Of a DNA stretch of 64,000 nucleotides, positions 7,725 through 53,724 are shown in pieces. Positions within the stretch are counted from its first letter, which is position 1, and every line of letters starts with the position of its first letter. The DNA lies in contig JAVKHQ010000006.1 in assembly GCA_031459875.1 (NCBI GenBank), positions 1 to 64,000 of the forward strand. Direction: 5' to 3'. The notes beneath the pieces were generated by a model. That model had not been told where the DNA came from. It did no database searches and worked only from the letters and a program-made list of their open reading frames with translations. Made by a program: the position numbers and the translations under genes. The DNA is from Candidatus Fervidifonticultor sextus. Its GTDB lineage: Bacteria > Sysuimicrobiota > Sysuimicrobiia > Sysuimicrobiales > Humicultoraceae.

Positions 7725-8909
7725 ATGCCTGCGCGCATCGTGTCGGCATCCGCGCACCTGTTGAAAGCCCCGGTGCCCGCGACGTTCTCCGCGTCCGCCG
7801 TACGCGGCCGTCACACGCACCGGACGGCCGTCCTGGTTCGGCTCGAGACGGATGCGGGGCTCACCGGATGGGGCGAGACATTTCCCGCCCTGGGGAGCCC
7901 GCCGGAGGCGATCCTGGAGACGTTGCGCACCGTCCTGGCCCCGGTCGTGCTGGGCGCCGATCCCCTGCCCGTGAGAGACCTCACCGCCCGGCTGCGGTAC
8001 GCCGCCCGGGGTCTGGGTGCTGTCGCGGTGCGGGGGATCAGCGCGCTGGACATCGCCCTGTGGGACCTGCGCGGCAGGCTGCTCGGCGAGCCCGTCTGCC
8101 GCCTGCTGGGCGCGAGCCCCAACGGGCGGTTCCCCGCCGTGGCCACGGCGGTGTTCTACGCGGATGACCCCGCGGATGCGGGCCCGCGCGTCGAGGCCGC
8201 CGTCCGCTACCACGAGATGGGCTTTGGGGCGATCAAGGTCAAGGTCGGCGGGCTGTCTCCGGCGGCGGATCTGGACCATGTGGAACGCATCCGCCGCGCG
8301 CTGCCCGCCGACGTCGTGCTCTGTGCGGACGCCAACTCGGGCTACCTGCTGCGCACGGCCCTGGGGGTTGCGCGGGGTCTGGCGGCGCTGGGGACCTACT
8401 GGTTCGAGGAGCCGATTCCCATCGACGACATCGAGGGGTATCGGGCGCTGGCCGCGGCCACCGGGATGTGGACTGCCGGCGGCCAGGACCTGGCCTCGAG
8501 TCAGGCCTTCCTCCCGCTGCTGGAGGCCAGGGCGCTGCACATCGTCCAGCCCAGCGTCGCCGCCGTCGGCGGTATCAGCGAGGCGGTGGCCGCCGCCGAC
8601 CAGGCGGTCCGGTTCGGGTTCCGTGCCTGTCCGACGGGGTGGGGCACGGGGCTGCTGCTGGCGGCGTCCCTGCACGTCCGGGCGGCGACAGCCTCCGCCG
8701 TCGCGCTGCCGTCTCCCGATCTCGACTGGATCGAATTCGACATCACCGACAACCCGCTGCGCGACCGCGTTCTGCGGGCACCCCTGCGGCCGGCGGGCGG
8801 ACGACTTGCGGTCCCCGCGGGGCCGGGGCTTGGGGTCGAGGTGGACGAGGATGGGCTCCGCGCCGTGACGGAAGCCTCGGTGACGGTTCAAGAAGGCGCC
8901 GGCTCGTGA
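7725..8909 (+). CDS. Mandelate racemase/muconate lactonizing (enolase superfamily) protein
   Basis: GLTGWGE, SALDIALWDL, KVK, DAN, WFEEP, PAGPGLGVE motifs. Confidence 0.85.
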   Translation: MPARIVSASAHLLKAPVPATFSASAVRGRHTHRTAVLVRLETDAGLTGWGETFPALGSPPEAILETLRTVLAPVVLGADPLPVRDLTARLRYAARGLGAVAVRGISALDIALWDLRGRLLGEPVCRLLGASPNGRFPAVATAVFYADDPADAGPRVEAAVRYHEMGFGAIKVKVGGLSPAADLDHVERIRRALPADVVLCADANSGYLLRTALGVARGLAALGTYWFEEPIPIDDIEGYRALAAATGMWTAGGQDLASSQAFLPLLEARALHIVQPSVAAVGGISEAVAAADQAVRFGFRACPTGWGTGLLLAASLHVRAATASAVALPSPDLDWIEFDITDNPLRDRVLRAPLRPAGGRLAVPAGPGLGVEVDEDGLRAVTEASVTVQEGAGS

Positions 8910-11113
8910 CCTCTTCGTATCCGACCGGAGAACTCGCGCAGGCCGCTCTGCCGGGGGTCCTCGCTCCGTTCTTCAACCCGAAGACGATTGCCGTGATTGG
9001 TGCCTCCGAGACTCCCGGGCTGGCGCGGGACCTTCTGATGACCCTGGACAGCCGGGGGTTTCGAGGTGATGTGCTCCCCGTCAACCCCCGGCACCGGCAG
9101 GTGCTCGGGCGGCGCTGCTACCCCGATGTGCGGTCCCTACCAACGGTGGCGGACCTGGCCGTCGTCCTGGTGCCGGCCGAGGCGACCCCGGAGGTCGTTG
9201 CGGCCTGCGGGCAGGCGAAGGTCCCCGGTGCAGTCATCTGCTCGTCGGGGTTTGCGGAAGTCGGCGAGGACGGCCGGGGTCTCCAGGCCCGCCTTGGCCG
9301 GCAGGCGCGCGCGGCGGGGCTTGCGCTGCTCGGCCCCAACTCCATCGGGTTTCTCAATGTGCCCGCCACCATCCCTGCTATGGCGGTTCCCCCGGCCAGC
9401 ATCCCTGCAGGACTTCGACCCGGTCCCGTCAGCGTGGTCTCGCAGAGCGCGGGCATCCTGATCTCGATGCTGGAATACGGGACCCAGATTGGCCTGGGGT
9501 TTGACCTCCTGGTCTCGACGGGGAACGAAGAGCAGGTGGGTGCGGCGGACTGTCTGGAGTACCTGCTCCACACCCCGACGACGCGGGTCATCGCCCTGGT
9601 CCTGGAGACCGCTCGTGATGGGCGACGCCTGCTCGACCTGGCCGTGCGGGCGCGTGCTCTGGGAAAGGCGGTGGTGGCCCTCAAGCTCGGCCGGTCGGCG
9701 CGGGGTGCTGAGGCGGCACGCTCGCACACGGCGGCGCTGGCCGGGTCGGCCGCAGTGTTCGACGCGGCCTGCCGCGACGCCGGCATCGAGGTCTTCGAGA
9801 GCATCTCGGGGCTCGTGGATGCCGCGGCGTTCCACAGCAAACGGCGGCCGGGGGTGCGTGGCGGCCTGGCGGCCATTACGATCTCGGGTGGGACGGCGGC
9901 CCTGGTGGCCGACGTGGCGGACCGCTTCGGCGTGCGTCTGGCCGACCTCGCTCCGCAGACGCAGCAGCGCCTGATGGGCCTCGTCCCCGCTGGCAGCGCT
10001 GTGGTCAACCCGCTGGATGTGACGGCCGCGGCCATCGAGGACGCCGAACTCTTCGCCCGCGTGGTCGGCGCGCTCAACGACGACCCCGACGTGGGAGCCA
10101 TCGCGCTCGTCCTGCACCTGAGGAAAGGCGGGGGCAGCCCGGCCCACCAGCGCCTGATTCGGACCTTTGTCGCGCAGCACGACCGGGTTTCCAAGCAACT
10201 CGTGGTCGTCTCGACGATCCCGGAGGCGCTGTCCGGCTTCTGGCACGAAGAGGCCGCCGCCGGCCCGGTGCCCTTCCTGAACGACCTTTCCGCGCTGGCG
10301 GCGCTCCGTGGTCTGACGGCTTCCGTCGAGCCGACGGTTAAGACGCGCCGTGAGAATCCTCCGGACGTCCCCGAGGTGTCTCTGGATGCCCTCAAGACCC
10401 CCGTCACCGGCGACGGCCTGTTGGCGGAGGTCGACGCCTATCGATTGCTGGAGGCGGCGGGTATCGCCGTGGCTCCCTATCTGGTGGCGCGTTCGCGAGA
10501 GGAAGCGGTCGCCGGGGCCGACCGGCTGGGCTATCCAGTGGTGCTCAAGGTCATCGCCGGCGTCGCCCACAAGGCGGCGGCGGGGTTGGTTCGGCTGGGC
10601 CTCCGCTCGGCCGACGACGTCGCCCGCGCCTACGACGAGCTCGGCTTGGTTCCTCTGCCGTCCGCAGCAGCGCGCAGGGGCGTGCTGGTTCAGGCCATGG
10701 TCGCGCCTGGCATGGAATTCCTGGTCGGCTTCCGGGTGGACCCGCAGTTTGGTCCGGTCGTGGCGGTGGGTCTGGGGGGCGTCTGGGCCGAGGCGCTGCG
10801 CGATGTCCAGATCGCCCTGGCCCCTGTGGATCCGCGGCAGGCTCTGGCGTTGATCGGCAGGCTCCGATCGGGCCACGCCCTCCAGGAACGCGCAGTCCAG
10901 GCCAAGGTGGATCTGGACGACGTCGCAGAGGTCACCAGCCGTCTCTCGCACCTTGCCGTGCGATTGGCGTCGCGCGTTTCATCGCTGGAGATCAACCCGC
11001 TGATCGCTACCCCGCGAGGCTGCCTGGCCGTGGATGCCCTCGGGGTGGTGTCGGGGGTTCGAGATTGCCCGACCACGGTTGACGTGGCAGCCGCCAGGAC
11101 CGGCGGCAGATGA
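8906..11113 (+). CDS. Acyl-CoA ligase (ADP-forming, acetate--CoA ligase family) with C-terminal ATP-grasp
   Basis: IAVIGAS, LLGPNSIG, VSQSAG, ARSHTAALAG phospho-His, GYPVVLK, DPQFGPVV, LEINPL; GTG at 8906. Confidence 0.9.
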   Translation: MTSSYPTGELAQAALPGVLAPFFNPKTIAVIGASETPGLARDLLMTLDSRGFRGDVLPVNPRHRQVLGRRCYPDVRSLPTVADLAVVLVPAEATPEVVAACGQAKVPGAVICSSGFAEVGEDGRGLQARLGRQARAAGLALLGPNSIGFLNVPATIPAMAVPPASIPAGLRPGPVSVVSQSAGILISMLEYGTQIGLGFDLLVSTGNEEQVGAADCLEYLLHTPTTRVIALVLETARDGRRLLDLAVRARALGKAVVALKLGRSARGAEAARSHTAALAGSAAVFDAACRDAGIEVFESISGLVDAAAFHSKRRPGVRGGLAAITISGGTAALVADVADRFGVRLADLAPQTQQRLMGLVPAGSAVVNPLDVTAAAIEDAELFARVVGALNDDPDVGAIALVLHLRKGGGSPAHQRLIRTFVAQHDRVSKQLVVVSTIPEALSGFWHEEAAAGPVPFLNDLSALAALRGLTASVEPTVKTRRENPPDVPEVSLDALKTPVTGDGLLAEVDAYRLLEAAGIAVAPYLVARSREEAVAGADRLGYPVVLKVIAGVAHKAAAGLVRLGLRSADDVARAYDELGLVPLPSAAARRGVLVQAMVAPGMEFLVGFRVDPQFGPVVAVGLGGVWAEALRDVQIALAPVDPRQALALIGRLRSGHALQERAVQAKVDLDDVAEVTSRLSHLAVRLASRVSSLEINPLIATPRGCLAVDALGVVSGVRDCPTTVDVAAARTGGR

Positions 11114-11751
11114 CCAAAGAAGGGGGGCGCCTGATGGAGGGGGTGGAGCGGGGGTCGCGGTGGTCCGAAGGGCCTCGGGTGCGTGTCAAGCCCCGGGTGA
11201 TCCCACGCGCGGGGGCGGTCCGGCTGTCCACGGAGCCTCTCCGGCGCGACCTGCAGGAGCTCGAACGCCGTTTTCTTCTCCTTCAGGGTCTTTTGGCCGA
11301 GGGTCCTTTTCAGGACTTCACGGCGGAGTTCTGTGCCATCCTCGGAGAGTTGGGTGCCATCGGAAATCGACTGGCAGAGATGGCCGGCCGCAGGAACATC
11401 ACCTACCTGGTCGACCGCAGGTTGGCGATTCTGCTCCAGTACTGCCTCTGGCTGGCCCGGCGGGTGAGCGCCGAGTGCCTCCTCCACCATCAGATCCGGC
11501 TGGAACAGGAACTGAAACGGCTCATCGGGCCGGAGGCCTACCAGGTCTACCTCCGCCTTGAGGACGTGGAAGACGCGGCGCGGGAGGTTGACATGCTCGA
11601 CGACCGCGACATGATGCGTCGCCTGCGCGAGGGCACGCTGGCGCGGGAGATCCTCGAGCAGGTCCTCGGGAGCGAAGAACAGACCTGGCTCTTCCCCAAT
11701 GGTGAGGAGGAGGACCGCCCGGCCAGCGGAGAGGACTCCGAGGGCCGATAA
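11110..11751 (+). CDS. Hypothetical helical protein
   Basis: 213-aa ORF coupled by an ATGA overlap (alternative ATG at 11134); no recognised motif. Confidence 0.6.
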   Translation: MTKEGGRLMEGVERGSRWSEGPRVRVKPRVIPRAGAVRLSTEPLRRDLQELERRFLLLQGLLAEGPFQDFTAEFCAILGELGAIGNRLAEMAGRRNITYLVDRRLAILLQYCLWLARRVSAECLLHHQIRLEQELKRLIGPEAYQVYLRLEDVEDAAREVDMLDDRDMMRRLREGTLAREILEQVLGSEEQTWLFPNGEEEDRPASGEDSEGR

Positions 11752-11924: not shown

Positions 11925-12053
11925 ATGAAGTACGAAACGCCTACCATCAAGGACTACGGCTCCATTGCTGAGCACACGTTTGGGGAAGCCGATCGGCCGA
12001 TCGTCGGTGGGGCCGTTCCGAGGAAGTTCTCGCTGGACGTGGACCGGCGGTAG
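11925..12053 (+). CDS. Lasso-type RiPP precursor peptide, 42 aa: MKYETPTIKDYGSIAEHTF-GEADRPIVGGAVPRKFSLDVDRR
   Basis: Below the ORF-track length cutoff; purine-rich RBS; leader YxxPxIxxxGxxxxxT with Thr at -2 and Gly at +1; adjacent RRE and B2 genes. Confidence 0.85.
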   Translation: MKYETPTIKDYGSIAEHTFGEADRPIVGGAVPRKFSLDVDRR

Positions 12054-12058
12054 CGCAC

Positions 12059-12080
12059 AGGGTTCGTCCTTCGGGCCTTT
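12059..12080 (+). terminator. Stem-loop after the precursor gene (leaky terminator or mRNA stabiliser)
   Basis: AGGGTTCG-TCCTT-CGGGCCTT hairpin with G:U pairs and a short T run. Confidence 0.4.
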
Positions 12081-12110
12081 CCCCACAATGAATCTCTGAG
12101 GGCAGACGTC

Positions 12111-13073
12111 GTGCCCGCGCGAACCTCGACCGTGGCGGTCGAGGTTCTCAATATCTCTCGACGATTCGGCGATACGGTGGCCCTCCACGACGTGTCGCTT
12201 CGCCTGGGTCCAGGCGGGGTCCACGCGCTACTGGGGCCCAATGGATCTGGCAAGACCACGCTCCTGCGCATCCTCCTGGGGCTGACCGAGCCAACCTCCG
12301 GCACCGTGCGCATCATGGGTATGCCGCCCGGTCGCCGGGTTCGGAGGGCGCTCGTGGGCTTGGTGCCGGCCGGGTCGCGTACGTTCTACCACCGGCTCTC
12401 CGGCCTGGAGAACCTGGTGTTCTTCGCGCGTCTCCACGGGATGCCGTATGCGATGGCGCTGGCCCGCGCGCGCGAGGTACTGGTTCAGGTGGGCTTGCAG
12501 TCTGCCGCCCATCTCAGGGTGGGCAAGTACTCCCATGGAATGCAGTCGTGTCTTGGGCTTGCCAGGGCCTTCCTGGCCGATCCACCGGTGCTGCTGGCCG
12601 ACGAGGCCACGCACGATCTAGATCCCGAGGCCGCGCGGCGCGTGCAGGGACTCGTCCGGCTGGCCGCCGAGCGCGGGACGACCGTGGTCTGGGCAACGCA
12701 GCGGGTTGACGAAATCGAGGGATTCGCTCATACCGTGATTCTCCTCGCGCAGGGGCGGGTCAGGTTCGCGGGCCCGGTGGAGCACCTGCTGGCGCACTCC
12801 GCCAGGCGGTACGTCCTGAACGTGGAGGATGGACGTTCGGCCGCCGGGGCGCTGGGCGAGGTGCTGAGCCGCGCCCTCGGGCGTCTGGGGGACGTGACGG
12901 CGCCCCCCGGGACTGCCGACGGCCACGTCACCCTCGACCTTGCCGACGGCGTGGCGCTGGGCGACGCCATTGCCGCACTGGCGGCCGCCGGGGTGAAGGT
13001 CACCTCGTGCCGGCAGGAACGCTCCGGGATGGAGGAGGCGTTCCTTCGGCTGACGGGATCTTCGATGCCATGA
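12111..13073 (+). CDS. ABC exporter ATP-binding protein
   Basis: Walker A GPNGSGKT, YSHGM signature, LLADE Walker B. Confidence 0.9.
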   Translation: MPARTSTVAVEVLNISRRFGDTVALHDVSLRLGPGGVHALLGPNGSGKTTLLRILLGLTEPTSGTVRIMGMPPGRRVRRALVGLVPAGSRTFYHRLSGLENLVFFARLHGMPYAMALARAREVLVQVGLQSAAHLRVGKYSHGMQSCLGLARAFLADPPVLLADEATHDLDPEAARRVQGLVRLAAERGTTVVWATQRVDEIEGFAHTVILLAQGRVRFAGPVEHLLAHSARRYVLNVEDGRSAAGALGEVLSRALGRLGDVTAPPGTADGHVTLDLADGVALGDAIAALAAAGVKVTSCRQERSGMEEAFLRLTGSSMP

Positions 13074-13885
13074 TCGTCGAGATCGGCAAACTCGGGGCTT
13101 TCCTCCGACGGGATTTCCTCATCGCGCTGAGTTACCGGGTCGGGTTCGCCGCCGACCTGGTCAACCTGCTGGCCCAGGCGGTATTGTTCTACTACGTCAG
13201 CCTGATTGTGGACCCCGCGCGGATGCCGAGTTTCGGAGGGACACGGGCCGGCTACGTGGCGTTTGTCGCCGTAGGCATCGCGGTCAGCGCGCTCCTCCAC
13301 ACAGGAGTGGCTGGAATGGCGCACGCCATTCGCGGCGAGCAATTGACGGGCACGCTCGAGTCCCTGCTGGTCACGCCCACGTCCGCGTGGACGCTGCAGC
13401 TCGGTTCGGTGATTTATGATCTCTCGTATGTGCCGGTGCGGACCGCGGCGTTTCTGGCAATTGTGGCCGTAGTTTTCGGCGTAGACTTCCACCTCGATGG
13501 CATTCTCCCGGCCCTGGCCCTCCTGGTGGTCTTCCTGCCCTGCGTCTGGGGTTTGGGCGCCGCCAGCGCCGCGGCAGTGCTCACGTTTCGGCAGGTGTCG
13601 GGCATCATCGGGCTCGCCACCGCGGCGCTCAGTATAGCTTCGGGAGCCTACTTTCCACACGACCTCCTGCCCGGCTGGCTCGCCGGCACGGCCCGCGTGA
13701 ACCCCGTGGCCCTTGCGCTGGGGGGTGCACGGGAGGCACTGCTGGGCGGCGGCGGGTGGTCGGCCGTCGTCCCCTACGCTCTGATGCTTGCCCCCTTCTC
13801 GGCTGTTTCCTTGATCCTGGGCGGCCTGGCGTTCCAGCTTGCGCTCCAGCGGGAGCGCCGCCTTGGCACACTGGGCTTGTATTGA
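13070..13885 (+). CDS. ABC-2 type permease
   Basis: Multiple hydrophobic segments, EQLTGTLESLLVTP, SGAYFP..LPGWL motifs. Confidence 0.9.
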   Translation: MIVEIGKLGAFLRRDFLIALSYRVGFAADLVNLLAQAVLFYYVSLIVDPARMPSFGGTRAGYVAFVAVGIAVSALLHTGVAGMAHAIRGEQLTGTLESLLVTPTSAWTLQLGSVIYDLSYVPVRTAAFLAIVAVVFGVDFHLDGILPALALLVVFLPCVWGLGAASAAAVLTFRQVSGIIGLATAALSIASGAYFPHDLLPGWLAGTARVNPVALALGGAREALLGGGGWSAVVPYALMLAPFSAVSLILGGLAFQLALQRERRLGTLGLY

Positions 13886-13897
13886 GGTCGGAGGTCG

Positions 13898-14197
13898 GTG
13901 ACCTTCTCTCCCATCCGCCCCGGCGATCGCGTCTCCCGGAACGCCAAGGTGGTGTCCCGCTGGCTGGGGGAGGAAGAGGGCGCGGTCCTGCTCCACCTGG
14001 AATCCGGGCAGTACCATGGACTTAACAGGATGGGCTGGGTGATCTGGAATCTCCTGGAAGGTCCCCGGACGTTCGGCGACCTGGTGGACGATGTGCGGAA
14101 GCAGGTGGAGGATCCGCCCGCGGAACTCGAGGCCGAAGTCGGGAGATTTCTAGATTCCCTGCACGCCCGCCACCTGGTCGAGATCGAGCCGGCCTGA
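13898..14197 (+). CDS. PqqD-family RiPP recognition element (lasso B1-like)
   Basis: 99 aa; AVLLHLESGQYHGLNRMGWVIWNLL...FLDSLHARHLV; GGAGG RBS. Confidence 0.9.
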   Translation: MTFSPIRPGDRVSRNAKVVSRWLGEEEGAVLLHLESGQYHGLNRMGWVIWNLLEGPRTFGDLVDDVRKQVEDPPAELEAEVGRFLDSLHARHLVEIEPA

Positions 14198-14217
14198 TCC
14201 TGTCCATCTAGATACGA

Positions 14218-15157
14218 ATGGCCACGTCTCACGTGACGCCTCCTGTCCCTCCGAGCCAGGGCACCTGCTATGGGTTTGCTGTTCGGTCCGACCTTCGGCT
14301 CCACTACCTGCGCGGTGGAGGCGGCGACCCGCTGGAGGTCGTGGCCGGGTCAACCCCGGACGAGTCTGCAGGGGGGGCATCTGCTGTGCGAGTGGGGGAC
14401 TCCTCCGGGTCAACCCGACGTCCGACTCTACCAGCACGGCTCTCGGTACCGGCTCTGGATCGACGGTGGCGGGAGTTACGAAGTCGACCCAGAGGGCGGA
14501 CGGATCGTGGTCCCCGAGGATGAGGACGGGCGCCGGCGTGAACAACTGTTGTGGAGTCTCCCTTCCGCCGTCTACCTCCTCCACCGAGGCGATCTGCCGA
14601 TCCACTCGGCGGCCGTTGAGATCGATGGCATCGGAGTCCTGCTGGGCGCGCCCGGCGGTCACGGGAAGACGACGCTGGCGGCGGCCTGCTACCAGGCCGG
14701 CCACCGGGTTCTTTCGGAGGACCTGACTTGCGTCCGTCTGTCGCCGGATCCGGTGATCATCCCCGGTCCTGCGATGCTGCGGCTGCGGCGGGATGTCCTT
14801 GAGTCGCTCGGCCTGTCCGATTCCTCCTCCGTGTTCTGGCATGGCAACCGGGTCAGCCTGGCCCTCGACCGTCAGAGGGGCGACTGCCGCCCCGTGCCCC
14901 TCGGGGCGATGGTCTTGCTCCGGCGGGACGCTCATGCTGTGCGCAGCGAGCGGGTCTGCGCAGTCGACGCCGTCAGAGATCTCTGGGAACTGAGCTTCTA
15001 CCTGCCCTCTGATGACGGGATGGCTAGGTGTTTTGCGCAGGTCGTGGATCTCGCAAGGATCGTACCTGTCTGGAATCTCTACCGCCCCATGCGGGTTGAC
15101 ATCCTTCCATCCGTCGTTGCTCTGATCGAGGTGCTGGCGGCGGGGCATGGTCGCTGA
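14218..15157 (+). pseudogene. HPr-kinase-like RiPP kinase, frameshifted at a G7 tract (14371..14377)
   Basis: N-terminal CYGFAVRSDL in one frame; IHSAAV, P-loop GAPGGHGKTT and LSED in another; removing one G fuses them. Confidence 0.75.
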
Positions 15158-15560
15158 ACGGCGCACGCGGCTGTCGCTGATGGCGCGGGTGGGACTGGTG
15201 CTGCGCGTCTGGCGCTGGTTCGCTTTCGTGCGGCTGCGGGTGGGCACTGACCCTTTGCCCCAGCTCGTCATGCAGCTCCGGCAGACCGCCCATCCGTCGC
15301 CGCGCCGGTATCCGCCGGGCACGCTCAGCCGGGCGGTGGACCGGAGCCTGCGCTTCGGCAACGTGAGATCCAGTTGTCTTACGAAGGCACTGGTGCTGTT
15401 TCGGCTCCTCAGGGAGCAGGGTGACCCGGCTGAGCTTGTTATCGGGCTGCCTGAGGATGGAGGCGCGCCAGGGGCGCACGCCTGGGTGGAACTCCACGGA
15501 TGGGACGTCGGGCCGCCGCCCGGCCGGGGCGTGCATACCGCTCTGGCGCGATTTCAATGA
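15147..15560 (+). CDS. Lasso peptide B2-type leader peptidase (transglutaminase-like)
   Basis: SCLTKAL (catalytic Cys), LVIG, AHAWVE (His) motifs. Confidence 0.9.
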   Translation: MVAERRTRLSLMARVGLVLRVWRWFAFVRLRVGTDPLPQLVMQLRQTAHPSPRRYPPGTLSRAVDRSLRFGNVRSSCLTKALVLFRLLREQGDPAELVIGLPEDGGAPGAHAWVELHGWDVGPPPGRGVHTALARFQ

Positions 15561-17581
15561 ACGACGAGGTGAGCCCGGTCTCCCGGGGCGACATCCTGAT
15601 CGCCTGCCTGATCGAACCGGATGCGGAGCCTCCCCGGCCCGGGCCACCCCTCTCTGAGTTGGTTGCCGGGTGTGATCTCGCCTGGCTGCCGCACGCGGCG
15701 CACTACCACGGCATCGCCGGGTACGTGTACCGCGCTCTGAAGGAACTCCCTGGCATCGACCCCCGGACGCTGGCCTCGCTGGAGACGCTGTACCGGTTAG
15801 GACTTGGCAGGCATCTCAGGGCCATTGGTGACTTGAGCCATCTCCAGGCGGTCCTGGACCGCGCGAGCGTCCGCTGGCTCGTGGCGGATGGTCCCGTCCT
15901 GGCCGAGACGGGATATCCGCGGCCGGATCTGCGCGCGTATGACGGGGTACATCTTGTCATCCCCCGGGAAGCCCTCTCGGTGGCCCTGCTGACGCTTGAG
16001 GGCGCTGGATGCCTGATCCGTCGCCGGGGGGAGAGCCTGCGCGCTAGCAGGGTCGACCTCACTCTCCGCTACGGGACTGCTGCCTGCCTGCGCTGTCATA
16101 TTGGAGACAGCGCCGATGGGGCACCGGAGCCCGATTCTCCAGGGTCAGGCATCTTCGACAGGGCTCGCCGGGTGCGGCTGGCATCCACCGTCGTGGCGAC
16201 CCTGGATGCCGCCGATGCGCTCATCTTCCTTGCGGCGCGCGCCACCGAGGACAGCAGCCGCCTGGGCCTGTTGAAAGACGTCGAGCGAATCCTGGCCACC
16301 ACGCCCATCTCCTGGGAGGAAGTCGTTCTCCGGTCCCGTACGTGGGGTCTTGCCGGTTCGGCCGGCGCCGCGCTGCGTCGGGCCCGGCAGGTGCTGTCGG
16401 CGCCGGTACCTCCAGATGTCATCCGGGCGTTGGCCAATGGCACCGGCCATCTCCCGAGCAAGGCGCGCCGGCCGCTAGGCCAGACTGACGGGCAGCCGAT
16501 GGTCTCATCGGCGTCGATCCTGCTCCACCTCATCCACGTGGATCCGAATCCATTGCCCCAGGATCTCCAAATCGACTGGGATGGTGTGGTGAGGCTGGCG
16601 GTGCGCGAGCGCCTGGCGCCGCTGGCGTTTGTCGGTCTCGACCGGGCCCGCGCCCCGGACTTCGTCAGGTCCATGCTGGCCCAGCCTTACCGTGAGGCGG
16701 TCGCCTCGGCCGCCGACGCCTACTGGCAGGCTGTCGAAGCCCTCCGGGTGCTGAGGGCCGAGGGCATCACGCCGATCCCACTGAAGGGCGCGGCCATGGC
16801 GCAGTTCGTCTACCGGGATGTGGGGCTCCGTCCGTTCGTTGACCTGGACTTTCTGGTCCGTGCTGAGCAGATCGATGCGGTCCATCGGGCCCTGCAGGCG
16901 GCAGGATACGCCATGGTGGGGGAGCGTCCCACGGACGCGGATCTGACCTGGCGGCACGGACGGGCGTACTTCGATCCGTCCGGGCACAGGATCTCTGTGG
17001 ACGTCCACTGGCGGTATCTGGGCTATCCGTGGCTGATGCCCTTCGACTTCGAGGGCGTCTTCGCCCGGGCGGCGGAGGCGTCTCTGGGGGAGGAACCGGT
17101 CCTCCTGGCCGCCCCCTGCGATATGATCGTGGCCACCAGCGCCTACTTCCTCCGCGAGCTCTGGTACGGGAAACCGAAGCTTCGCTACCTCCGCGATCTG
17201 GCCGAACTCTCTGTCCGTTCCGCGGTGGACTGGGACTGCGTGATCAACGTGGCCGCGGCCACGCCGCGCATTCGCCCCCCGCTCTACCTGACGCTGGCGG
17301 CGGCCGCCGGACTACTCGGCGCGGCGGTTCCGGAGGAGGTATTGGAGCGGCTGCGGCCCCGACGGAAGCCACGGGTCACCAGTCGCCTCGAGGCCGCCGT
17401 CTCCCGCAACATCCTGCGCATCGATTCCCCCATCCAGGCGGTGGGACAGGTGGCCCTCATGCGTTGGATCGACGAGCCATCCCTGACGGTCATGCTGCGG
17501 TGGCTCCTGGCTCTTCTCTTCGTTCCCCGGCCACTGGCCTCCAGCCAGCGGCGGTGGCTGCAGCGGATCTGGCGGCGATGA
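15557..17581 (+). CDS. Nucleotidyltransferase family protein (NTP_transf_5-like), two tandem domains
   Basis: Second domain PLKGAAMAQFVY..LRPFVDLDFLV, VDVHW, YLRDL; first domain is a degenerate copy; ATGA overlap with B2. Confidence 0.85.
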   Translation: MNDEVSPVSRGDILIACLIEPDAEPPRPGPPLSELVAGCDLAWLPHAAHYHGIAGYVYRALKELPGIDPRTLASLETLYRLGLGRHLRAIGDLSHLQAVLDRASVRWLVADGPVLAETGYPRPDLRAYDGVHLVIPREALSVALLTLEGAGCLIRRRGESLRASRVDLTLRYGTAACLRCHIGDSADGAPEPDSPGSGIFDRARRVRLASTVVATLDAADALIFLAARATEDSSRLGLLKDVERILATTPISWEEVVLRSRTWGLAGSAGAALRRARQVLSAPVPPDVIRALANGTGHLPSKARRPLGQTDGQPMVSSASILLHLIHVDPNPLPQDLQIDWDGVVRLAVRERLAPLAFVGLDRARAPDFVRSMLAQPYREAVASAADAYWQAVEALRVLRAEGITPIPLKGAAMAQFVYRDVGLRPFVDLDFLVRAEQIDAVHRALQAAGYAMVGERPTDADLTWRHGRAYFDPSGHRISVDVHWRYLGYPWLMPFDFEGVFARAAEASLGEEPVLLAAPCDMIVATSAYFLRELWYGKPKLRYLRDLAELSVRSAVDWDCVINVAAATPRIRPPLYLTLAAAAGLLGAAVPEEVLERLRPRRKPRVTSRLEAAVSRNILRIDSPIQAVGQVALMRWIDEPSLTVMLRWLLALLFVPRPLASSQRRWLQRIWRR

Positions 17582-17592
17582 CCGGGATGCCC

Positions 17593-17904
17593 CTACAGTC
17601 TGGCCGGGCGGATCCAGGCGGCCGTCAGTTCCATGCCTTCACGGGAGCTGATCTTCGGTTCGAAGCCGAGCAGGCGTTGGGCCTTCTCGGTGCTGCAAAC
17701 GGTCGTGTCGGCGTACAGGTGTACCAGGCTTCGCGGGAGCAGGGGGCGCGGCGGCGGGCCGCCATCGTCAGGTGAATCCGAGCGGACCATGATGTCAGCC
17801 ACCCTCTGCCGGAGCCGTCGCTGCGTCCCCTCGGGTAGCATCCTCGCCACTCCACGTGCCACCAGCTCCATCCTCGTCACGATCGGGACCGCCCGGATGG
17901 TCAT
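17593..17904 (-). pseudogene. C-terminal remnant of an NAD-dependent epimerase paralogue
   Basis: RPLLPR..EKAQRLLGFEPK..EGMELTAAWIRPARL aligns with the C-terminus of 1669..2844; no Rossmann domain. Confidence 0.7.
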
Positions 17905-19100
17905 TGCCGCGCGCCCAGTCCCCTGAAGATCAGCAGCCGCAGCGGGTACGCCTGCATGACGATCAGGGTCCCGTCTGGAGTCGCGGTCGAGCCCTGGATG
18001 ATGAGCTCGCGCGTCGTCGCCCGCGAATATCCCGCTGGCGGGGGTGGCAGCGTCGCCACCCGTCCTACCACCTGCGGCAGGCCCTGGTCGGGCCACACGC
18101 GCAGGATGAAGAGGTCCCTCCCTCCCCCTCCCGGCAGCAAGCCCGTGTAATACACCGCCCCGTCTGGAGCGGCGGTCATCGTGTAGTGCACCCCGGGAGT
18201 CGTGTATCCCTCCGGTACCGCCGCGCCCAGCATCCGCAAGCCGACCTCCCGCTCGCGCGGATCGTAGAGGTAGACCTGCCCGGTCTCCTTTCCCACACCG
18301 AAGAACCGCCGTCCGTCGGCTGAGACGGCCAGCGCGTACGGCGGCTCATAGGTTCCCGTCCCCGACATCACCAGCGGCAGCCGCTCGATGCGCCCCGCGG
18401 CGGCGTTGTAGCGTGCCATCGCGTTTGGGCCGAACTGATGGAAGACGTCACCGTTGGCCAGCACGACCAGGTAGCGCGTGGGGTGCTCGCCTTCCGGACC
18501 CAGACGGCCGCGGTCGGCAAACGTCCGCGTGCGCGGATCGTAGACGATCAGGTGGCTCTCAGGGTCGCTGAGCACGTAGACGTTTCCCCGCACGCGGTCC
18601 AGCCCCACGGCGATGATGCTCATCCCCGGCGTCCCGGGCCTGGGGATGCCCAGGTCGGTCGTGGTCCGCGTGCGCGGATCGTAGACCAACAGGTGCCCGC
18701 CCGGGTACCGTTGCCAGGCGGGATCCTTGCTGCGGCCCCCCGACTTCGTCCCGAAGTAGACGCGCCCGTCCGGAGCGATGGCCGGCTTGGTGTGGACCTT
18801 CGCCTGACCGGCCGGCCCCGGCAGGCGCTCCCCGGTGGCCGCCGACATCTCGGCGAGGCTCTCGAACCGTCCCGTGCGCGGCGAGTAGGCGAGCAGGTGC
18901 CCGTAGCCGTTGTAGATTGTCGTGCCGATGTACACGGTCCCATCGGGGCCGGCCTGGATCGCCGTGTACGCGCCCCCGGTATGGTACTCTTCGGGGACGT
19001 AGACGATCGACGGGACGAGCACGCGGTCTGCCGACGCGAACGCCGTCGCCACGAACAGGATGGTAACAGCCAACCCCGCGACGCCGCGCCCTGCGACCAT
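17901..19100 (-). CDS. Secreted beta-propeller-like repeat protein
   Basis: Signal peptide, repeated YDPRT and PDG.VY.GT blades; GGAGG RBS. Confidence 0.8.
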   Translation of the reverse strand: MVAGRGVAGLAVTILFVATAFASADRVLVPSIVYVPEEYHTGGAYTAIQAGPDGTVYIGTTIYNGYGHLLAYSPRTGRFESLAEMSAATGERLPGPAGQAKVHTKPAIAPDGRVYFGTKSGGRSKDPAWQRYPGGHLLVYDPRTRTTTDLGIPRPGTPGMSIIAVGLDRVRGNVYVLSDPESHLIVYDPRTRTFADRGRLGPEGEHPTRYLVVLANGDVFHQFGPNAMARYNAAAGRIERLPLVMSGTGTYEPPYALAVSADGRRFFGVGKETGQVYLYDPREREVGLRMLGAAVPEGYTTPGVHYTMTAAPDGAVYYTGLLPGGGGRDLFILRVWPDQGLPQVVGRVATLPPPPAGYSRATTRELIIQGSTATPDGTLIVMQAYPLRLLIFRGLGARQ

Positions 19101-49968: not shown

Positions 49969-50073
49969 CCCGTCCGCCCATCTAGATGTCTGCGTAGCCC
50001 TGCTTTAGCCTGCGGCCCATCCGACCCTGACTCGCTGGTCTACAGGAAACGGGTGGGCCCGCAAAATTGAGTA

Positions 50074-50118
50074 TTGCATTCTGCATTAGAATTTTGTATT
50101 CTCCATAACACAATGCAG
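50074..50118 (+). promoter_or_regulatory. GntR operon promoter with candidate operator
   Basis: TTGCAT-17-TATTCT; repeats TGCATTC, TGCATTA, TGTATTC and inverted AATGCA. Confidence 0.55.
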
Positions 50119-50895
50119 CCAGACTACACGGTACGCCTCCAGGCGGTAACTCGCCGGAATCTCTACGAAGAAGTCCACCGGCGGCTTCGCGAGGCTATCC
50201 TGGCAGGCGAGTTGCCGGCCGGCGAGCGAGTGCACGAGAGCCAGCTGGCTCAGCGTCTCGGTGTGAGCCGGACGCCGGTCAGGGAGTCGGTGCTCAAGCT
50301 CGAGCGCGAGGGGCTCGTCTACCGCGACTCACGCTCGGGATTCGTGATCTACCCGATTACCAAACGCGATATCGCCGATGCCTACGCCTGCCGCAGCGCA
50401 GTTGATGCCCTGGTGGTGTCCAGGGTGGTGGAGGTCGCCACGCCTGCACAGCTGGACAGCCTCGAGGCGGCCCTGACCGCCACCCGAGGTTTCCTGAAAC
50501 AGGAAGACGTCCGCGCCGTCATGCGCTGCAACTCGGAGTTTCACGACCTGCTGGTCCAGATAGCCGGGAGTCATATCTTTCGGACTCTGCATCGCCAAGT
50601 CTGGACCTTCATTGAGCGGTATCGGTTTGCAGCGTTGGCGCTGTTCTCCGAGAGCCCGGGGTCTCTGGAGCGATATCTGCAGTTGCTGCACAGCGTCCTG
50701 CAGGACCACGAGGCGCTGCTGGCGGCCCTGCGCACTCGGGACGCCCAGAGAGCGCGTACCATCGCCGAGCGCCACGGGGAGGCGACGGCGGCCGGGGTAA
50801 TGCAGTGCATTGCGACGCTCGACGACTACCTGCAGCCTGTCCCTTCAGCCGGTCGGCCCGGGGAGAGCCATTACAGAGGAGGCATCAGGACCTGA
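50113..50895 (+). CDS. GntR (FadR/FCD) family regulator
   Basis: ESQLAQRLGVSRTPVRE HTH; NSEFH, DHEAL FCD motifs. Confidence 0.92.
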   Translation: MQPDYTVRLQAVTRRNLYEEVHRRLREAILAGELPAGERVHESQLAQRLGVSRTPVRESVLKLEREGLVYRDSRSGFVIYPITKRDIADAYACRSAVDALVVSRVVEVATPAQLDSLEAALTATRGFLKQEDVRAVMRCNSEFHDLLVQIAGSHIFRTLHRQVWTFIERYRFAALALFSESPGSLERYLQLLHSVLQDHEALLAALRTRDAQRARTIAERHGEATAAGVMQCIATLDDYLQPVPSAGRPGESHYRGGIRT

Positions 50896-50911
50896 TTGGG
50901 GGGAGAGTGCG

Positions 50912-51955
50912 ATGAAGCGGCGCGCAGCTACTGTAGTGGTCATAATCGTGTTAGCCGGTGGTCTGCTGCCTCTGGCCAGAGCGGGTGCTGTCCGGGAGCT
51001 CGTGGTCAATGCCTACGGGGGTGAGTACGAGGAGATCATCAAGGCAACGATCCTCCGGCCCTTTGAACAGACACGCAATGTCCGGATCGTCTACGATCCC
51101 ACCGGTTCCGCCTCCGCGGACTTCGCCAAGATCCGCGCCACCCGAGGTGATCCGGGCTGGGACGTGGTGGTGATGACGGCGCCCGAGAGCCTCATCGGGT
51201 GCCAGCTCGCGCTGCTGGAGAGGCTCTCTGAGGATCGGGTCCCCAATCAGAAGTTCATCTACCACGAGGTGCGGAATGGTGCCGGTCCCTGCGGGGCGGT
51301 CCAGGAGCTGCAGTACATGTCCCTCATGTACAATACCAGGAACGTCACCCCTCCCCCGACGTCGTGGCGGATCTTGTGGGATGCGAAGTACAAGGGGCGC
51401 ATCATCGTGCCTGACATCGGGAACATCCTGGCCGTCTACCTCCTCTTCATGGCCGCATATATGAACGGGGGAGATCAGCACAATCTCGAACCCGGCTGGG
51501 CTCAGATCGCTGCGCTCCGGGATAACGCCCTGGCAGTAATCGAATCCTCGGCGGACATGGTGCCGTACTTCGAGCGTGGCCAAGCTTGGTTGCTGCCCTA
51601 CTGGGATGGACGAGCACACTACTACAAGAACCGGGGCCTGCCCGTTGACTTCCTCATCCCCAAAGAAGGGACCGTGGGGCTTGTCAATACCCTCAATGTG
51701 CCGGTGGGGGCCAAGAACAAAGAGCTCGCATATGAGTTCATCAATTTCTGGCTCAGCAAAGAGATGCAAGAGAAGTGGGCTCAGGCCTACACGGTGGGGA
51801 CCGCGCGTGTTGACACCGTGCTCCCACCCGAGCACAGTCAGCGTCATGTGACGTCGATCCGGCAGCTGAAGACCCTCAAGATTCCCGACTTCCTCTACAT
51901 CGGGCAAAAGCGTTCCGAGTGGGCTGAGCGCTGGAAGAAGATTATGGTTCGGTAG
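50912..51955 (+). CDS. ABC substrate-binding protein (PotD/opine-like)
   Basis: Signal peptide, AYGG, PTSW..LWD..YKG, PKEG, LAYEFINF. Confidence 0.9.
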   Translation: MKRRAATVVVIIVLAGGLLPLARAGAVRELVVNAYGGEYEEIIKATILRPFEQTRNVRIVYDPTGSASADFAKIRATRGDPGWDVVVMTAPESLIGCQLALLERLSEDRVPNQKFIYHEVRNGAGPCGAVQELQYMSLMYNTRNVTPPPTSWRILWDAKYKGRIIVPDIGNILAVYLLFMAAYMNGGDQHNLEPGWAQIAALRDNALAVIESSADMVPYFERGQAWLLPYWDGRAHYYKNRGLPVDFLIPKEGTVGLVNTLNVPVGAKNKELAYEFINFWLSKEMQEKWAQAYTVGTARVDTVLPPEHSQRHVTSIRQLKTLKIPDFLYIGQKRSEWAERWKKIMVR

Positions 51956-52007
51956 GGCACGAGCCCTGTAGCAACGCCCTCTTCGGGGTGTCGGGAGGAT
52001 CACACCC

Positions 52008-52901
52008 GTGACGGGAACTCATGATGCGCTGGCTATGCCCGCGGCGGTGGTTCCCCGCAGGAGTGTTCCTGGATACCTGCCTCTGGTCCTACCGCCTGTT
52101 GCCTACCTGGTGATCATCTTCGTCATTCCCCTGGCGTTGCTCGCTGTCTTGAGCCTCCTGCGCCATGAGGCCGGGCTGATCGTCAACCAGCTTACCCTGG
52201 AGAACTACGCGAAGTTGCTGGGGGACACTTATTACGTGCGTGTGATCTACCGTACGCTGGGGACGTCGCTGGCCGTGGCTTTTTTCGTGACGTTCCTCAG
52301 CTATCCGGTGGCCTACTTCCTGACCAGGACGCGCACCACGTGGAAACCGGTGCTGGTGGCCCTGGTGCTGGCTCCGGAGTTGTCGGGGGTCGTGCTGCGC
52401 ACCTACGGATGGCTCGTGATCCTAGAGCCCGAGGGTCTGCTCAATACGGTCTTGCAGCGCCTGGGCCTGCTGGATGCTCCCCTGAAGCTGGTCCACAATT
52501 ACGCGGCGGTCACCATCGGGCTGACCCATGTTCTGCTCACCTTTGGTGTGTTCACCGTCATGGCGTCGCTGCAGGCCATGGATCCAACACTGGAACTGGC
52601 CGCGCAGAATTTGGGGGCGAACCGCGTACAGACCTTTCTGCGGATCACACTGCCGTTGACCCTGCCCGGGATTTTGGGCTCCTTCTTCTTGGCGTTCGCC
52701 CTGGCGGCTGGCGCCTACGCGACCCCTGCGATCCTGGGTGGCAAGACCGTTGAGGTCATGTCCACCCTAATCTACACCCAACTGCTCTACATCTTGAACT
52801 GGCCGCTGGCGTCGGCGGCAGCGGTCATCCTGCTGGTGATCGTTCTGACGACGCTCATGCTGTTGGGCCGGTTTGGCGCCCGGCGTGGGGCGGTTCTGTG
52901 A
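52008..52901 (+). CDS. ABC permease (PotB-like)
   Basis: YPVAY, RTYGW, AAQNLGA EAA loop. Confidence 0.92.
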   Translation: MTGTHDALAMPAAVVPRRSVPGYLPLVLPPVAYLVIIFVIPLALLAVLSLLRHEAGLIVNQLTLENYAKLLGDTYYVRVIYRTLGTSLAVAFFVTFLSYPVAYFLTRTRTTWKPVLVALVLAPELSGVVLRTYGWLVILEPEGLLNTVLQRLGLLDAPLKLVHNYAAVTIGLTHVLLTFGVFTVMASLQAMDPTLELAAQNLGANRVQTFLRITLPLTLPGILGSFFLAFALAAGAYATPAILGGKTVEVMSTLIYTQLLYILNWPLASAAAVILLVIVLTTLMLLGRFGARRGAVL

Positions 52902-53722
52902 GGATGCCCGTGCAGCGGATGATCAAGCGGGCGCTGCCACGGGCGGCCTTCACGCTGGTTGTGATGGCGATTTACGCCTTCATGTTCCTCCCCATCGCCG
53001 TGGTCCTGGTGACCTCCGTGGGTGCATCGCGGTATTTGGAGTTCCCGCCGCGCGCCCTCAGCCTGCGGTGGTATCAGGCGGTATTGGTGAAGGATTGGAT
53101 CGAGCCCGCCAGGGTGAGCTTCAATCTGGCGCTGGTGTCAGCCGCCATCGCCACCCTCTTGGGGTCGGCAGGTGCTTTCGCCATCGTGCGGCACCGGTTC
53201 CTGGGACGGGATGCGATCGCGGCGTTGCTTCACTCTCCGCTGGCAATCCCGTCCATTGTCGCGGGGGTTGCTATTCTGCAGTTCTTTACCGTCGTGGGCG
53301 CCAAGTGGCTGCTGGGGTTTCCGGCCTTGCTGTTGGCCCATGCAATGGAGACCATCCCCTTCGTCACTCGCACCGTCTCCGTAAGCCTGCTGGGGGTAGA
53401 TCGTACCTTGGAGCAGGCGGCCATGAACCTAGGGGCGCGGCGCTGGCAGACGCTGCGACATGTGACCCTGCCGCTCATCAAGCCGGGATTGTTCGCGGGG
53501 GCGGCTTTCGCCTTCGTCATCTCCTTCAACAACGTGAACCTTTCCCTCTTTCTCGTCCGTCCGGGTGTCATCACCCTGCCCATCCGGATCATGAACTTCC
53601 TGGAGTTTGGCGTGGCGCCGGTTCTGGCCGCGGTGAACATTCTCTCCCTGGCCGCCGTGCTGGTGGTGGTCGCAGTGGCCGAGCGCGTGGGCGGCTTCAC
53701 GAAGTTCCTGTACGGGCAGTAG
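52898..53722 (+). CDS. ABC permease (PotC-like)
   Basis: FPP..SLRWY, LEQAAMNLGA, TLPI. Confidence 0.92.
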   Translation: MRMPVQRMIKRALPRAAFTLVVMAIYAFMFLPIAVVLVTSVGASRYLEFPPRALSLRWYQAVLVKDWIEPARVSFNLALVSAAIATLLGSAGAFAIVRHRFLGRDAIAALLHSPLAIPSIVAGVAILQFFTVVGAKWLLGFPALLLAHAMETIPFVTRTVSVSLLGVDRTLEQAAMNLGARRWQTLRHVTLPLIKPGLFAGAAFAFVISFNNVNLSLFLVRPGVITLPIRIMNFLEFGVAPVLAAVNILSLAAVLVVVAVAERVGGFTKFLYGQ

Positions 53723-53724
53723 AG

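Follow-up and report, generated by a model that had tools for sequence, protein, structure and literature searches.

The B1 and B2 proteins of lasso pathways are taken as markers of this peptide class, and a cyclase is required by genome-mining tools. A PqqD-like chaperone (TIGR04353) and an HprK-related kinase (TIGR04352) also make up the HPr-rel-A system of NCBIfam. Clusters of the kinase-bearing, split-B kind have the gene set A, D, B1, C, K, B2 and N. Their reported gene orders are C A K B1 B2 D for paeninodin, a version with N for pseudomycoidin, and A K B1 B2 N C D for the Bsf cluster of Bradymonas sediminis (PMC8498205, PMC10368454, PMC5067487). PadeB1 and PadeB2 need neither PadeC nor ATP to cleave the precursor (PMC5067487), the lasso kinases use the linear precursor as substrate (PMC8498205), and BsfK is stimulated by its RiPP recognition element (RRE) (PMC10368454). 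In the accessible text of these reports, the sites modified by the characterised kinases are a terminal Ser, or a Ser/Thr at position 3 (PMC8498205, PMC13381572, PMC10368454). The linear polyphosphorylated peptides (LPP) of Bacillota, encoded by lppA-K-B-S-D-N, were described by Popov et al. (Nat Commun 2026, PMC13381572). In that report, the peptides made by a cyclase-less relative are linear, polyphosphorylated and freed of their leader, and deletion of the nucleotidyltransferase in the one cyclase-less relative tested produced no change in a heterologous host (PMC13381572).

The locus described here lies in a window of 64,000 nucleotides, the whole stretch of DNA that was analysed. The host is an uncultured hot-spring bacterium. 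All seven genes listed in the first-pass annotation were recovered by ORF calls and by Pfam and NCBIfam profiles, all on the + strand. They begin with a 42-aa precursor peptide (11925..12053; ORF), followed by a DrrA-like ABC transporter ATPase (12111..13073; PF00005, 93 bits; TIGR01188, 174.7 bits, under its cut-off) and a DrrB-like ABC-2 type permease (about 13070..13885; PF01061, 64 bits), the start of which overlaps the ATPase stop. Next are a PqqD-family RRE corresponding to lasso B1 (13898..14197; PF05402, 64.8 bits), an HprK-like peptide kinase (14218..15157; weak PF07475 and TIGR04352 matches, and a family alignment), a lasso B2 leader peptidase of the transglutaminase-like Cys peptidase type (15147..15560; NF033537, 50.7 bits against a cut-off of 33; PF13471) and a nucleotidyltransferase with two PF14907 domains (15554..17581; Pfam; the ORF is open from 15500, with a likely start at 15554). 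Intergenic spacings from the precursor through the nucleotidyltransferase are 57, -4, 12, 20, -11 and about -7 bases. With all genes present on one strand and spaced by -11 to 57 bases, the precursor, ABC-2 exporter, PqqD, kinase, B2 and double PF14907 nucleotidyltransferase make up a single packed operon, as tightly coupled as first described. A promoter and terminator scan returned nothing above chance, and neither did the predicted fold of the stretch 3' of the precursor (z -0.03). Just upstream of the precursor is a gene for a 213-aa helical protein (11110..11751, + strand), which has no Pfam or NCBIfam family and no usable atlas match. It is a tandem duplicate in the sister species, is missing from the G002, G016 and G081 clusters and has one weak match (4e-4) in L032; it is probably outside the conserved cluster.

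The PqqD protein matches NF033536 and NF033530 under their cut-offs, and its closest solved chain is TbiB1 (5v1u; E 6e-14). A complex model of PqqD with the precursor scored 0.74 (median of three runs) against 0.01 for the best control, a pass that may merely reproduce known structures, because similar complexes (TbiB1) have been solved. Of 157 solved complexes, 116 attain the mark it passed, as do 2 of 215 mismatched pairs; own alignments were supplied. Contacts agreed among the runs to at least 89%, the partner pLDDT was at least 56, and leader residues 1-15 were placed against PqqD residues 36-49. Among 16 sequences of the B2 peptidase, Cys77 and His111 never vary and Asp120 hardly does. 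The two domains first assigned to the nucleotidyltransferase are there, both of PF14907, but the KG...DLD motif, which the relatives also conserve, is kept only in the C-terminal domain and is degenerate in the N-terminal one.

The precursor consists of the leader MKYETPTIKDYGSIAEHTF and the 23-aa core GEADRPIVGGAVPRKFSLDVDRR, and the stretch GGAGAGGAAGGGG lies directly upstream of its ATG. The leader is of the lasso type, carrying YxxPx[L/I/V] as Tyr-17, Pro-14 and Ile-12 together with Thr-2, at the positions of the lasso leader motif. This motif is common to 36 distinct precursors of the family, and its positions are quoted in PMC13381572. The genome search found a single such precursor, and a homologue search with the 42-aa sequence matched itself alone. 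In the sister species the leader is identical and the core has three changes. The core contains Lys15, a single Ser (Ser17, its sole hydroxyl residue) and no Cys; its acidic residues are at positions 2, 4, 19 and 21, so that the Asp/Glu of a lasso ring acceptor is absent from positions 7, 8 and 9. The first-pass annotation took this absence to fit the loss of the cyclase, an argument that is weak because Asp/Glu stands at positions 7-9 in just 9 of the family's 30 cyclase-linked cores and is missing there in the other 21. Cys residues number two to four in 29 of the 30 cyclase-linked cores and zero in the cores of the window, L008, L061 and L069. Also absent from the window core is the conserved GD...C...DKFGE.SC module of cyclase-linked cores. 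The Cys-free cores of L061 and L069 are Arg/Lys-rich, and that of the window is of mixed charge.

Homologous loci show how the cluster is distributed. The family-specific cyclase is inside the cluster in 45 of 81 related metagenome loci, and most of the other 36 end at a contig edge. Within the phylum, a cognate cyclase lies beside the kinase in 8 of the 10 kinase-family genomes (one of the eight, G017, is unpublished), the exceptions being this genome and its sister (G000 and G005). The cluster occurs in 2 of 6 genomes of the genus and the kinase family in 10 of 94 of the phylum; a search of genome contigs with the kinase protein matched the sister species alone, and in genus members without the cluster the window's flanking genes sit on separate contigs. 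A homologue search gave 485 kinase homologues, labelled PF27840 in the protein database. In a concatenated tree of PqqD, kinase and B2, the window and L008 adjoin cyclase-bearing clusters, two of them of the same taxonomic family, with weak support (81), and L061 and L069 are on long, unplaced branches. In the kinase tree, an AU test did not reject the window, L008, L061 and L069 as one clade (p 0.34). A survey of synteny for cyclase-less clusters, suggested at first pass, did find others, although members of the family normally carry the cyclase. L061, an unrelated metagenome contig, has a complete cluster in the same gene order without a cyclase, between ruvCAB and yajC-secDF. In L069/L071, no cyclase gene lies among those for the nucleotidyltransferase, precursor, PqqD, kinase and B2. 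A 12-row kinase clade (L022, L033, L038, L079 and others) was left out of the cyclase-less count, because L022, L033, L038 and L079, its four contigs reaching the ATPase, break at the ATPase 5' end; L035, where B2 is followed by a divergent gene resembling AsnB (35.8 bits), was counted in neither class. On this comparison of loci, the cluster is to be read as a secondary cyclase loss within a large lasso-type family and not as a stand-alone class: the cyclase in 45 of 81 homologous loci and 8 of 10 phylum genomes turns the candidate new class of the first-pass annotation into a secondary derivative.

That no cyclase is encoded in the 64 kb, as first noted, was borne out by PF00733, by an HMM built from this cluster family and by tblastn for cyclase remnants, none of which gave a match in the window. 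The family HMM scores 780-920 bits on true members and 96 bits on the AsnB of the genome; it replaced phmmer with AsnB, which had found only five cyclases among the loci. A search of the whole genome for Asn_synthase/lasso cyclase, especially left of the window, had been proposed; since the window starts at base 1 of its contig, its left can mean other contigs only. When this search was run with PF00733, it returned no lasso cyclase and a single AsnB, encoded in a glycosyltransferase locus of another contig. A macrolactam cyclase (C) is likewise absent from the sister genome, and of the lasso hallmarks the RRE (B1) and the transglutaminase-like Cys peptidase (B2) are present. It is quite improbable that this is an ordinary lasso cluster with its cyclase in an unassembled part of the genome. 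Both genomes are metagenome assemblies (the window genome 96% complete, the sister 84%) and biosynthetic loci are often poorly assembled, but the cyclase is missing from two separate assemblies of two species and, wherever one exists (45 loci and 8 phylum genomes), it is always inside or directly beside the cluster. Moreover, the operon is contiguous, with 20 bases from PqqD to kinase (20-25 in both cyclase-less species) and no remnant, and the core is without the module of cyclase-linked cores. Cyclisation or cross-linking by some other enzyme, with B2 acting as a transamidase or with an enzyme encoded outside the cluster, is still more improbable. The transglutaminase-like fold of B2 (PF13471), the presence in the core of Lys15 and four acidic residues, and the many cyclase-linked family cores without the canonical acceptor, by which the family chemistry is not understood, would allow for it. 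Against it, transamidase activity of B2 is unreported in the accessible literature on these B2 systems, the window B2 aligns without gaps or conserved-position changes to the B2 of cyclase-bearing clusters, and Pfam and NCBIfam profiles showed no further cyclase candidate in the neighbourhood.

The kinase, given as a single gene at first pass, is in two frames in this assembly (14218-14370 and 14381-15157), split by a +1 frameshift from one extra G in a G7 homopolymer (14371..14377, + strand; DNA alignment with the sister species). If intact it would have 312 aa, the length of the intact sister gene, and it retains the Walker-A GKT and all 39 invariant columns of the family alignment. A contig of the same strain from a different sample (run X2) is identical over 13900-14408 except for one G fewer at 14371; its homopolymer is thus G6 and its frame stays open. 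In run X1, from which the window probably comes, the contig again shows G7. The frameshift allele may hence be genuine in that population, where phosphorylation would then be lost. Such an allele could be the next step in the decay of a remnant that lost its cyclase, makes no useful product and is heading for deletion; the patchy presence of the cluster in genus and phylum, the degenerate N-terminal nucleotidyltransferase domain and a precursor core changing at silent-site pace (precursor dN/dS 1.0 against the sister species; 3 non-synonymous to 1 synonymous; not significant) point the same way. Decay is nevertheless unlikely in view of the selection acting on the other genes. Between the two species, dN/dS is 0.21 for the ATPase, 0.17 for the permease, 0.26 for PqqD, 0.27 for B2, 0.26 and 0.16 for the N- and C-terminal parts of the kinase, and 0.43 for the nucleotidyltransferase (435 codons present in the sister locus). 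Neutrality is rejected for every enzyme and transporter gene (dN/dS 0.16-0.43; p 0.011 down to 1.5e-10), and for the four maturation genes pooled (0.30; binomial p 5e-18), these values being averages since the split and compatible with very recent decay in one lineage. All cluster ORFs of the sister species are intact; B2, the kinase and the C-terminal nucleotidyltransferase domain retain their catalytic residues; and the cyclase-bearing L010 and G016 likewise have a double nucleotidyltransferase whose first domain is weak. Thus, while the first-pass annotation, which had named decay as a possible refutation, overlooked the frameshift, the purifying selection, the intact sister ORFs and the open X2 frame speak against decay. 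The data support a cluster apparently kept by purifying selection without its cyclase in two species, with the leader-removal and tailoring modules retained without ring formation, as had been claimed.

On balance, we favour loss of the cyclase in the common ancestor of the two Candidatus Fervidifonticultor-like species, with an operon that would still work and make a linear peptide. In this pathway, PqqD would bind the leader through the Tyr-17/Pro-14/Ile-12 motif, and the HprK-like kinase would phosphorylate the precursor, most likely on Ser17. That target is a guess, because the core has no terminal Ser and no Ser/Thr at position 3. The C-terminal domain of the nucleotidyltransferase may append a further group to the Ser17 phosphate. 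B2, helped by PqqD, would then cleave after Thr-2/Phe-1 to release the 23-residue linear core, and the ABC-2 pump would export it. The product is most likely a linear, phosphate-decorated, exported peptide, and the first suggestion of an exported, modified, non-lasso peptide seems the best reading.

Compared with the described systems, the locus shares with the phosphorylated lasso clusters a split B1/B2, an HprK-like kinase, a nucleotidyltransferase and an exporter, and its leader shares their YxxPx[L/I], with a Thr at -2 unlike Bsf. Those clusters, as described in the available text, have a cyclase gene, and their products are threaded or branched-cyclic lassos in which Asp/Glu is found at 7-9, whereas the window has neither cyclase nor acceptor. 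Its kinase also differs, matching the HPr-kinase models weakly (PF07475, 19 bits) and belonging to the PF27840-labelled family. Like the window, HPr-rel-A has a PqqD-like and HprK-related pair outside a classical lasso cluster, but the scores fall short of membership (kinase 38.7 bits against a cut-off of 200, PqqD 28 against 35). The nearest relatives are the cyclase-bearing clusters of uncultured Gaiellales, Gemmatimonadales and Sysuimicrobiota (L010, L019, L070, L088, G002, G016, G081), for which no published description was found. They have A, ATPase, permease, PqqD, kinase, B2 and often the nucleotidyltransferase at 45-60% identity and the same leader, in the order pre-atp-perm-pqqD-C-kin-B2(-NT) or ...kin-B2-NT-pre-C; they differ from the window in the cyclase and in their Cys-bearing cores with the conserved module. 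They represent a large, apparently unstudied lasso-like family of soil and hot-spring bacteria, the cores of which mostly break the acceptor-at-7-9 rule.

The cyclase-less, lasso-related, linear phosphorylated peptide, first put forward as a candidate new class, is already published as LPP (PMC13381572). As far as the accessible text of that report goes, both LPP and window clusters lack a macrolactam cyclase and combine a discrete RRE of the PqqD type with an HprK-like kinase, an NTP transferase of the PF14907 type, an ABC exporter and a leader bearing YxxP. The LPP product has been shown to be a leader-cleaved, linear, phosphate-bearing peptide. LPP clusters use a signal-peptidase-like enzyme (SpI-like, SipW-type) and the window a lasso B2; a search for the SipW type (TIGR02228) found none in the window and one sub-cut-off match (37.9 bits) on another contig. 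The LPP exporter is MsbA-like and that of the window a separate ATPase and ABC-2 permease; of the LPP leader consensus YxxPxVLxHQxIxFETxxS the window shares only YxxPx[I]; and the LPP phosphosite is Ser3, where the window core has Ala3. No published description of a B2-type cyclase-less cluster was found, although the supplements of PMC13381572 may contain some. LPP are called Bacillota-restricted there; the window cluster belongs to Sysuimicrobiota and descends from another lasso lineage, one that has B2. Tentatively, a lasso pathway may have turned into a linear-peptide pathway at least once outside Bacillota, with B2 kept and separately from the LPP route, accompanied by exchange of a Cys-knotted for a Cys-free core; B1, B2, K and N would then be a self-sufficient platform to recognise, phosphorylate or decorate, and release non-lasso peptides in a persistent lineage. 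The cluster is a natural experiment on the role of the kinase and nucleotidyltransferase without a ring. If it is maintained without a cyclase, the module that recognises and cuts the leader can be used for linear products, and the linear phosphorylated peptides of 2026 have a counterpart from another lasso lineage in an uncultured thermophilic phylum.

The window that holds the cluster makes up the opening 64 kb of contig C56, part of a 3.05-Mb assembly (67 contigs, 96% complete); Candidatus Fervidifonticultor octavus (phylum Sysuimicrobiota) is a close relative, and the runs containing the window DNA come from hot-spring metagenomes. Seven genes are read from the forward strand. A 42-codon precursor ORF (11925-12053, by ORF call) is followed by genes for an ABC ATPase (12111-13073), an ABC-2 permease (about 13070-13885), a PqqD protein (13898-14197), an HprK-like kinase (14218-15157), a lasso B2 peptidase (15147-15560; 50.7 bits on NF033537 vs a cut-off of 33), and a protein with two PF14907 nucleotidyltransferase domains (15500/15554-17581); the others downstream of the precursor were assigned by ORF and Pfam/NCBIfam. 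Because the spacings run from 57 bases at most down to small overlaps, the description of one tightly coupled operon in the first-pass annotation stands. The precursor leader, MKYETPTIKDYGSIAEHTF, is of the textbook lasso type (Tyr-17, Pro-14, Ile-12, Thr-2), and a 23-residue core, GEADRPIVGGAVPRKFSLDVDRR, follows it directly.

The flanks have features of their own. An NDP-forming acyl-CoA synthetase with CoA-binding, succinyl-CoA-ligase-like and ATP-grasp domains (8468-11113) adjoins the cluster in the window and also, at 91% DNA identity, in the sister species, a second Fervidifonticultor-like genome (G001 = G005) whose cluster locus is L008. The synthetase ORF as listed begins with some 160 extra Arg/Gly-rich residues, an N-terminal extension that probably stems from an artefactual GTG start farther upstream. 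A 213-aa helical protein of no known family is encoded directly upstream of the precursor (window 11110-11751; L008:6138-7470); it is tandemly duplicated in the sister species (dN/dS 0.40) and absent from the clusters of genomes G002, G016 and G081. Directly after the nucleotidyltransferase stop, a 167-codon ORF on the opposite strand (17593-18096) resembles, by eye, the end of an NAD-dependent epimerase in its C-terminal half and may be a gene fragment marking a rearrangement at the 3' border of the cluster. Farther right, the G+C content falls to 0.62-0.63 at 50001-54000, vs about 0.70 to the left and 0.64-0.67 from there to the window end; this segment may be foreign DNA.

The absence of a lasso macrolactam cyclase from the 64 kb was confirmed by PF00733, by a family HMM made from cyclases adjoining homologues of the window cluster, and by tblastn with family cyclases, which also found no cyclase remnants in the window. 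The search, extended to the whole genome with PF00733, returned a single true asparagine synthase; its gene is on contig C47, beside glycosyltransferases and a Wzy-like gene. It is above the cut-off of the AsnB model (TIGR01536, 406.6 bits vs 267.1) and far under that of the lasso-cyclase model (189.7 bits vs 525). The family HMM gives 780-920 bits on full-length members and 96 bits on the C47 protein, and matches nothing else in genome or window. A cyclase was likewise not found in the 84% complete sister genome. The PqqD and kinase genes adjoin in the same way in both species, with 20 bases between them in the window and 25 in the sister.

The kinase has 485 homologues, roughly 50% identical to it; most come from soil bacteria that are uncultured, Gaiellales and Gemmatimonadales among them. 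Eighty loci from a metagenome scan with a kinase-homologue alignment, plus that of the sister species, gave a set of 81. The family cyclase lies inside the cluster in 45 of these, L035 has an AsnB-like gene that is divergent, and the other 35 have no visible cyclase. Of the last, L061 alone is flanked on both sides by more than 6 kb of free sequence, and L008 on one side; the remainder stop at or near a contig edge. Three gene orders occur with the cyclase (C): precursor-ATPase-permease-pqqD-C-kinase-B2, with or without a final nucleotidyltransferase gene; ATPase-permease-pqqD-kinase-B2 with C and precursor convergent; and kinase-B2-nucleotidyltransferase-precursor-C at the end of the cluster. 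Within the phylum, the kinase family is present in 10 of 94 genomes and adjoins a cognate cyclase in eight (one, G017, unpublished); the two exceptions are the window genome and its sister. With so many cyclase-bearing homologous clusters, the idea of an isolated new class does not hold. In a concatenated PqqD, kinase and B2 tree, the window and L008 group with clusters that have a cyclase, among them the clusters of G016 and G002, which belong to the taxonomic family of the window genome; support for the grouping is only 81. By these relatives, in loci, phylum genomes and tree alike, the window cluster is secondarily cyclase-less and derives from a lasso-type family, the cyclase having been lost before the window and sister species diverged.

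Cyclase-less lineages are on long branches in the kinase and concatenated trees (window plus L008 stem 0.63-0.66, L061 0.93-1.11, L069 0.63-1.2; median end branch 0.16-0.22); the remaining enzymes may have evolved faster after the loss. On the minus strand of L009 (873-4351), genes for permease, kinase, B2 and nucleotidyltransferase follow one another, the first two lacking a PqqD gene between them; the set is convergent with a further kinase copy on this contig, which is 4.3 kb long. In L032, a second mini-cluster beside the normal one (12531-14198, minus strand) has the lasso-type leader MYVPPRIADFGRIDVHTY, fused to a Cys-free tail of 63 residues that includes a hydrophobic, Gly-rich stretch, then kinase and B2 genes, and no PqqD or cyclase gene of its own.

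Clusters without a cyclase recur in L061 and L069/L071. L061 lies within a 28.6-kb metagenome contig, keeps the window order from precursor to nucleotidyltransferase, and is flanked by housekeeping genes (ruvC, ruvA and ruvB upstream; a CBS protein gene, yajC and secDF downstream); its core is HGRRRKRRKKHHPGTSTF. L069/L071 encode an ankyrin protein, nucleotidyltransferase, precursor with an Arg-rich core, PqqD, kinase and B2, followed by a convergent ABC ATPase. In the kinase tree a single clade of window, L008, L061 and L069 was not rejected (AU test, p 0.34). Thirty-six distinct precursors with a window-type leader were collected, 30 of them from cyclase-bearing loci. Two or four Cys are found in 29 of these 30 cores, to which a GD...C...DKFGE.SC module is common; the cores of window, L008, L061 and L069 have neither Cys nor module.

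The lack of an acceptor residue in the core had been thought to fit the loss of ring formation. This argument is weak: Asp/Glu at positions 7-9, counted from the cut after HTF, is present in only 9 of the 30 cyclase-linked cores, and therefore acceptor absence alone is no sign in this family that the product is linear. The other 21 (L013, L015, L019, L023, L047, L068, L070, L088, L148, L150 and others) share a later GD[WKF]...C...D[KP]xFGE[PY]SC module, and Ser or Ser-Pro is the C-terminus of most of them. Their cyclases close much larger or different rings, or else the N-terminus undergoes further trimming; the family, large and found in soil and hot springs, looks uncharacterised.

Might the cluster be a remnant, now decaying? 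A stretch of seven Gs at 14371-14377, one too many, breaks the kinase gene in the window, and the same G7 is in a contig of X1, the public metagenome run that is its probable source. However, the sister gene is intact (312 codons), and a contig of a second run, X2, is identical over 13900-14408 except for one G fewer, which restores the reading frame. Both forms are thus present in public-run contigs, and G7 is either an assembly error or a real allele. Selection also argues against decay. Between window and sister, both cyclase-less (dS about 0.14-0.29), dN/dS is 0.21 for the ATPase, 0.17 for the permease, 0.26 for PqqD, 0.26 and 0.16 for the N- and C-terminal parts of the kinase, 0.27 for B2 and 0.43 for the nucleotidyltransferase. 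Neutrality is rejected gene by gene, and the four maturation genes pooled give 0.30 (p 5e-18). In B2, Cys77 and His111 (both invariant) and Asp120 (nearly invariant) are retained; in the kinase, so are the Walker-A GKT and each of the 39 columns that are invariant in the family alignment. Decay is the main rival reading, and an unlikely one. A KG...DLD motif, presumably the catalytic motif of the nucleotidyltransferase fold, is present in the C-terminal nucleotidyltransferase domain and in all five single-domain relatives aligned, and absent from the N-terminal domain.

In the predicted complex of PqqD and precursor, leader residues 1-15 would lie against PqqD residues 36-49. The model passed with a score of 0.74 vs 0.01 for the best control, a mark that 116 of 157 solved complexes attained, against 2 of 215 mismatches; contact agreement between runs was at least 89% and partner pLDDT at least 56, with custom alignments. 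Since the RiPP recognition element (RRE) profile matches the solved TbiB1 (E 6e-14), resemblance to known complexes may account for the pass.

We lean, by a modest degree, to a maintained pathway that would yield a linear, leader-cleaved, exported 23-mer, probably phosphorylated at Ser17. The gene content first described is confirmed, and the interpretation first proposed is upheld in part: retention of the cyclase-less cluster under purifying selection is borne out, its standing as an isolated new class is not, and the acceptor argument is weak. The proposed steps have precedents in lasso systems: B1 and B2 cut the precursor without C or ATP (PMC5067487), lasso kinases use the linear precursor as substrate, the pseudomycoidin nucleotidyltransferase puts hexoses onto the phosphate (both PMC8498205), and BsfK targets Ser3 with stimulation by the RRE (PMC10368454). 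No B2-type cyclase-less cluster was found described in the literature searched, which took in main-text sections of PMC13381572. That paper (Popov et al. 2026) describes LPP clusters of Bacillota (lppA-K-B-S-D-N) that encode an RRE, HprK-like kinase, NTP transferase and exporter without a cyclase. Their products, which it regards as the linear analogues of lasso peptides that are phosphorylated and as restricted to Bacillota, are linear and leader-cleaved, with as many as four phosphates on Ser3. The LPP clusters differ from the window cluster in exporter type, leader consensus and phosphosite, and in leader removal, by a signal-peptidase-I-like enzyme vs the B2 peptidase of the window, where no SipW-like gene was found; the overall logic of RRE, kinase, NTP transferase and exporter without a cyclase is alike.
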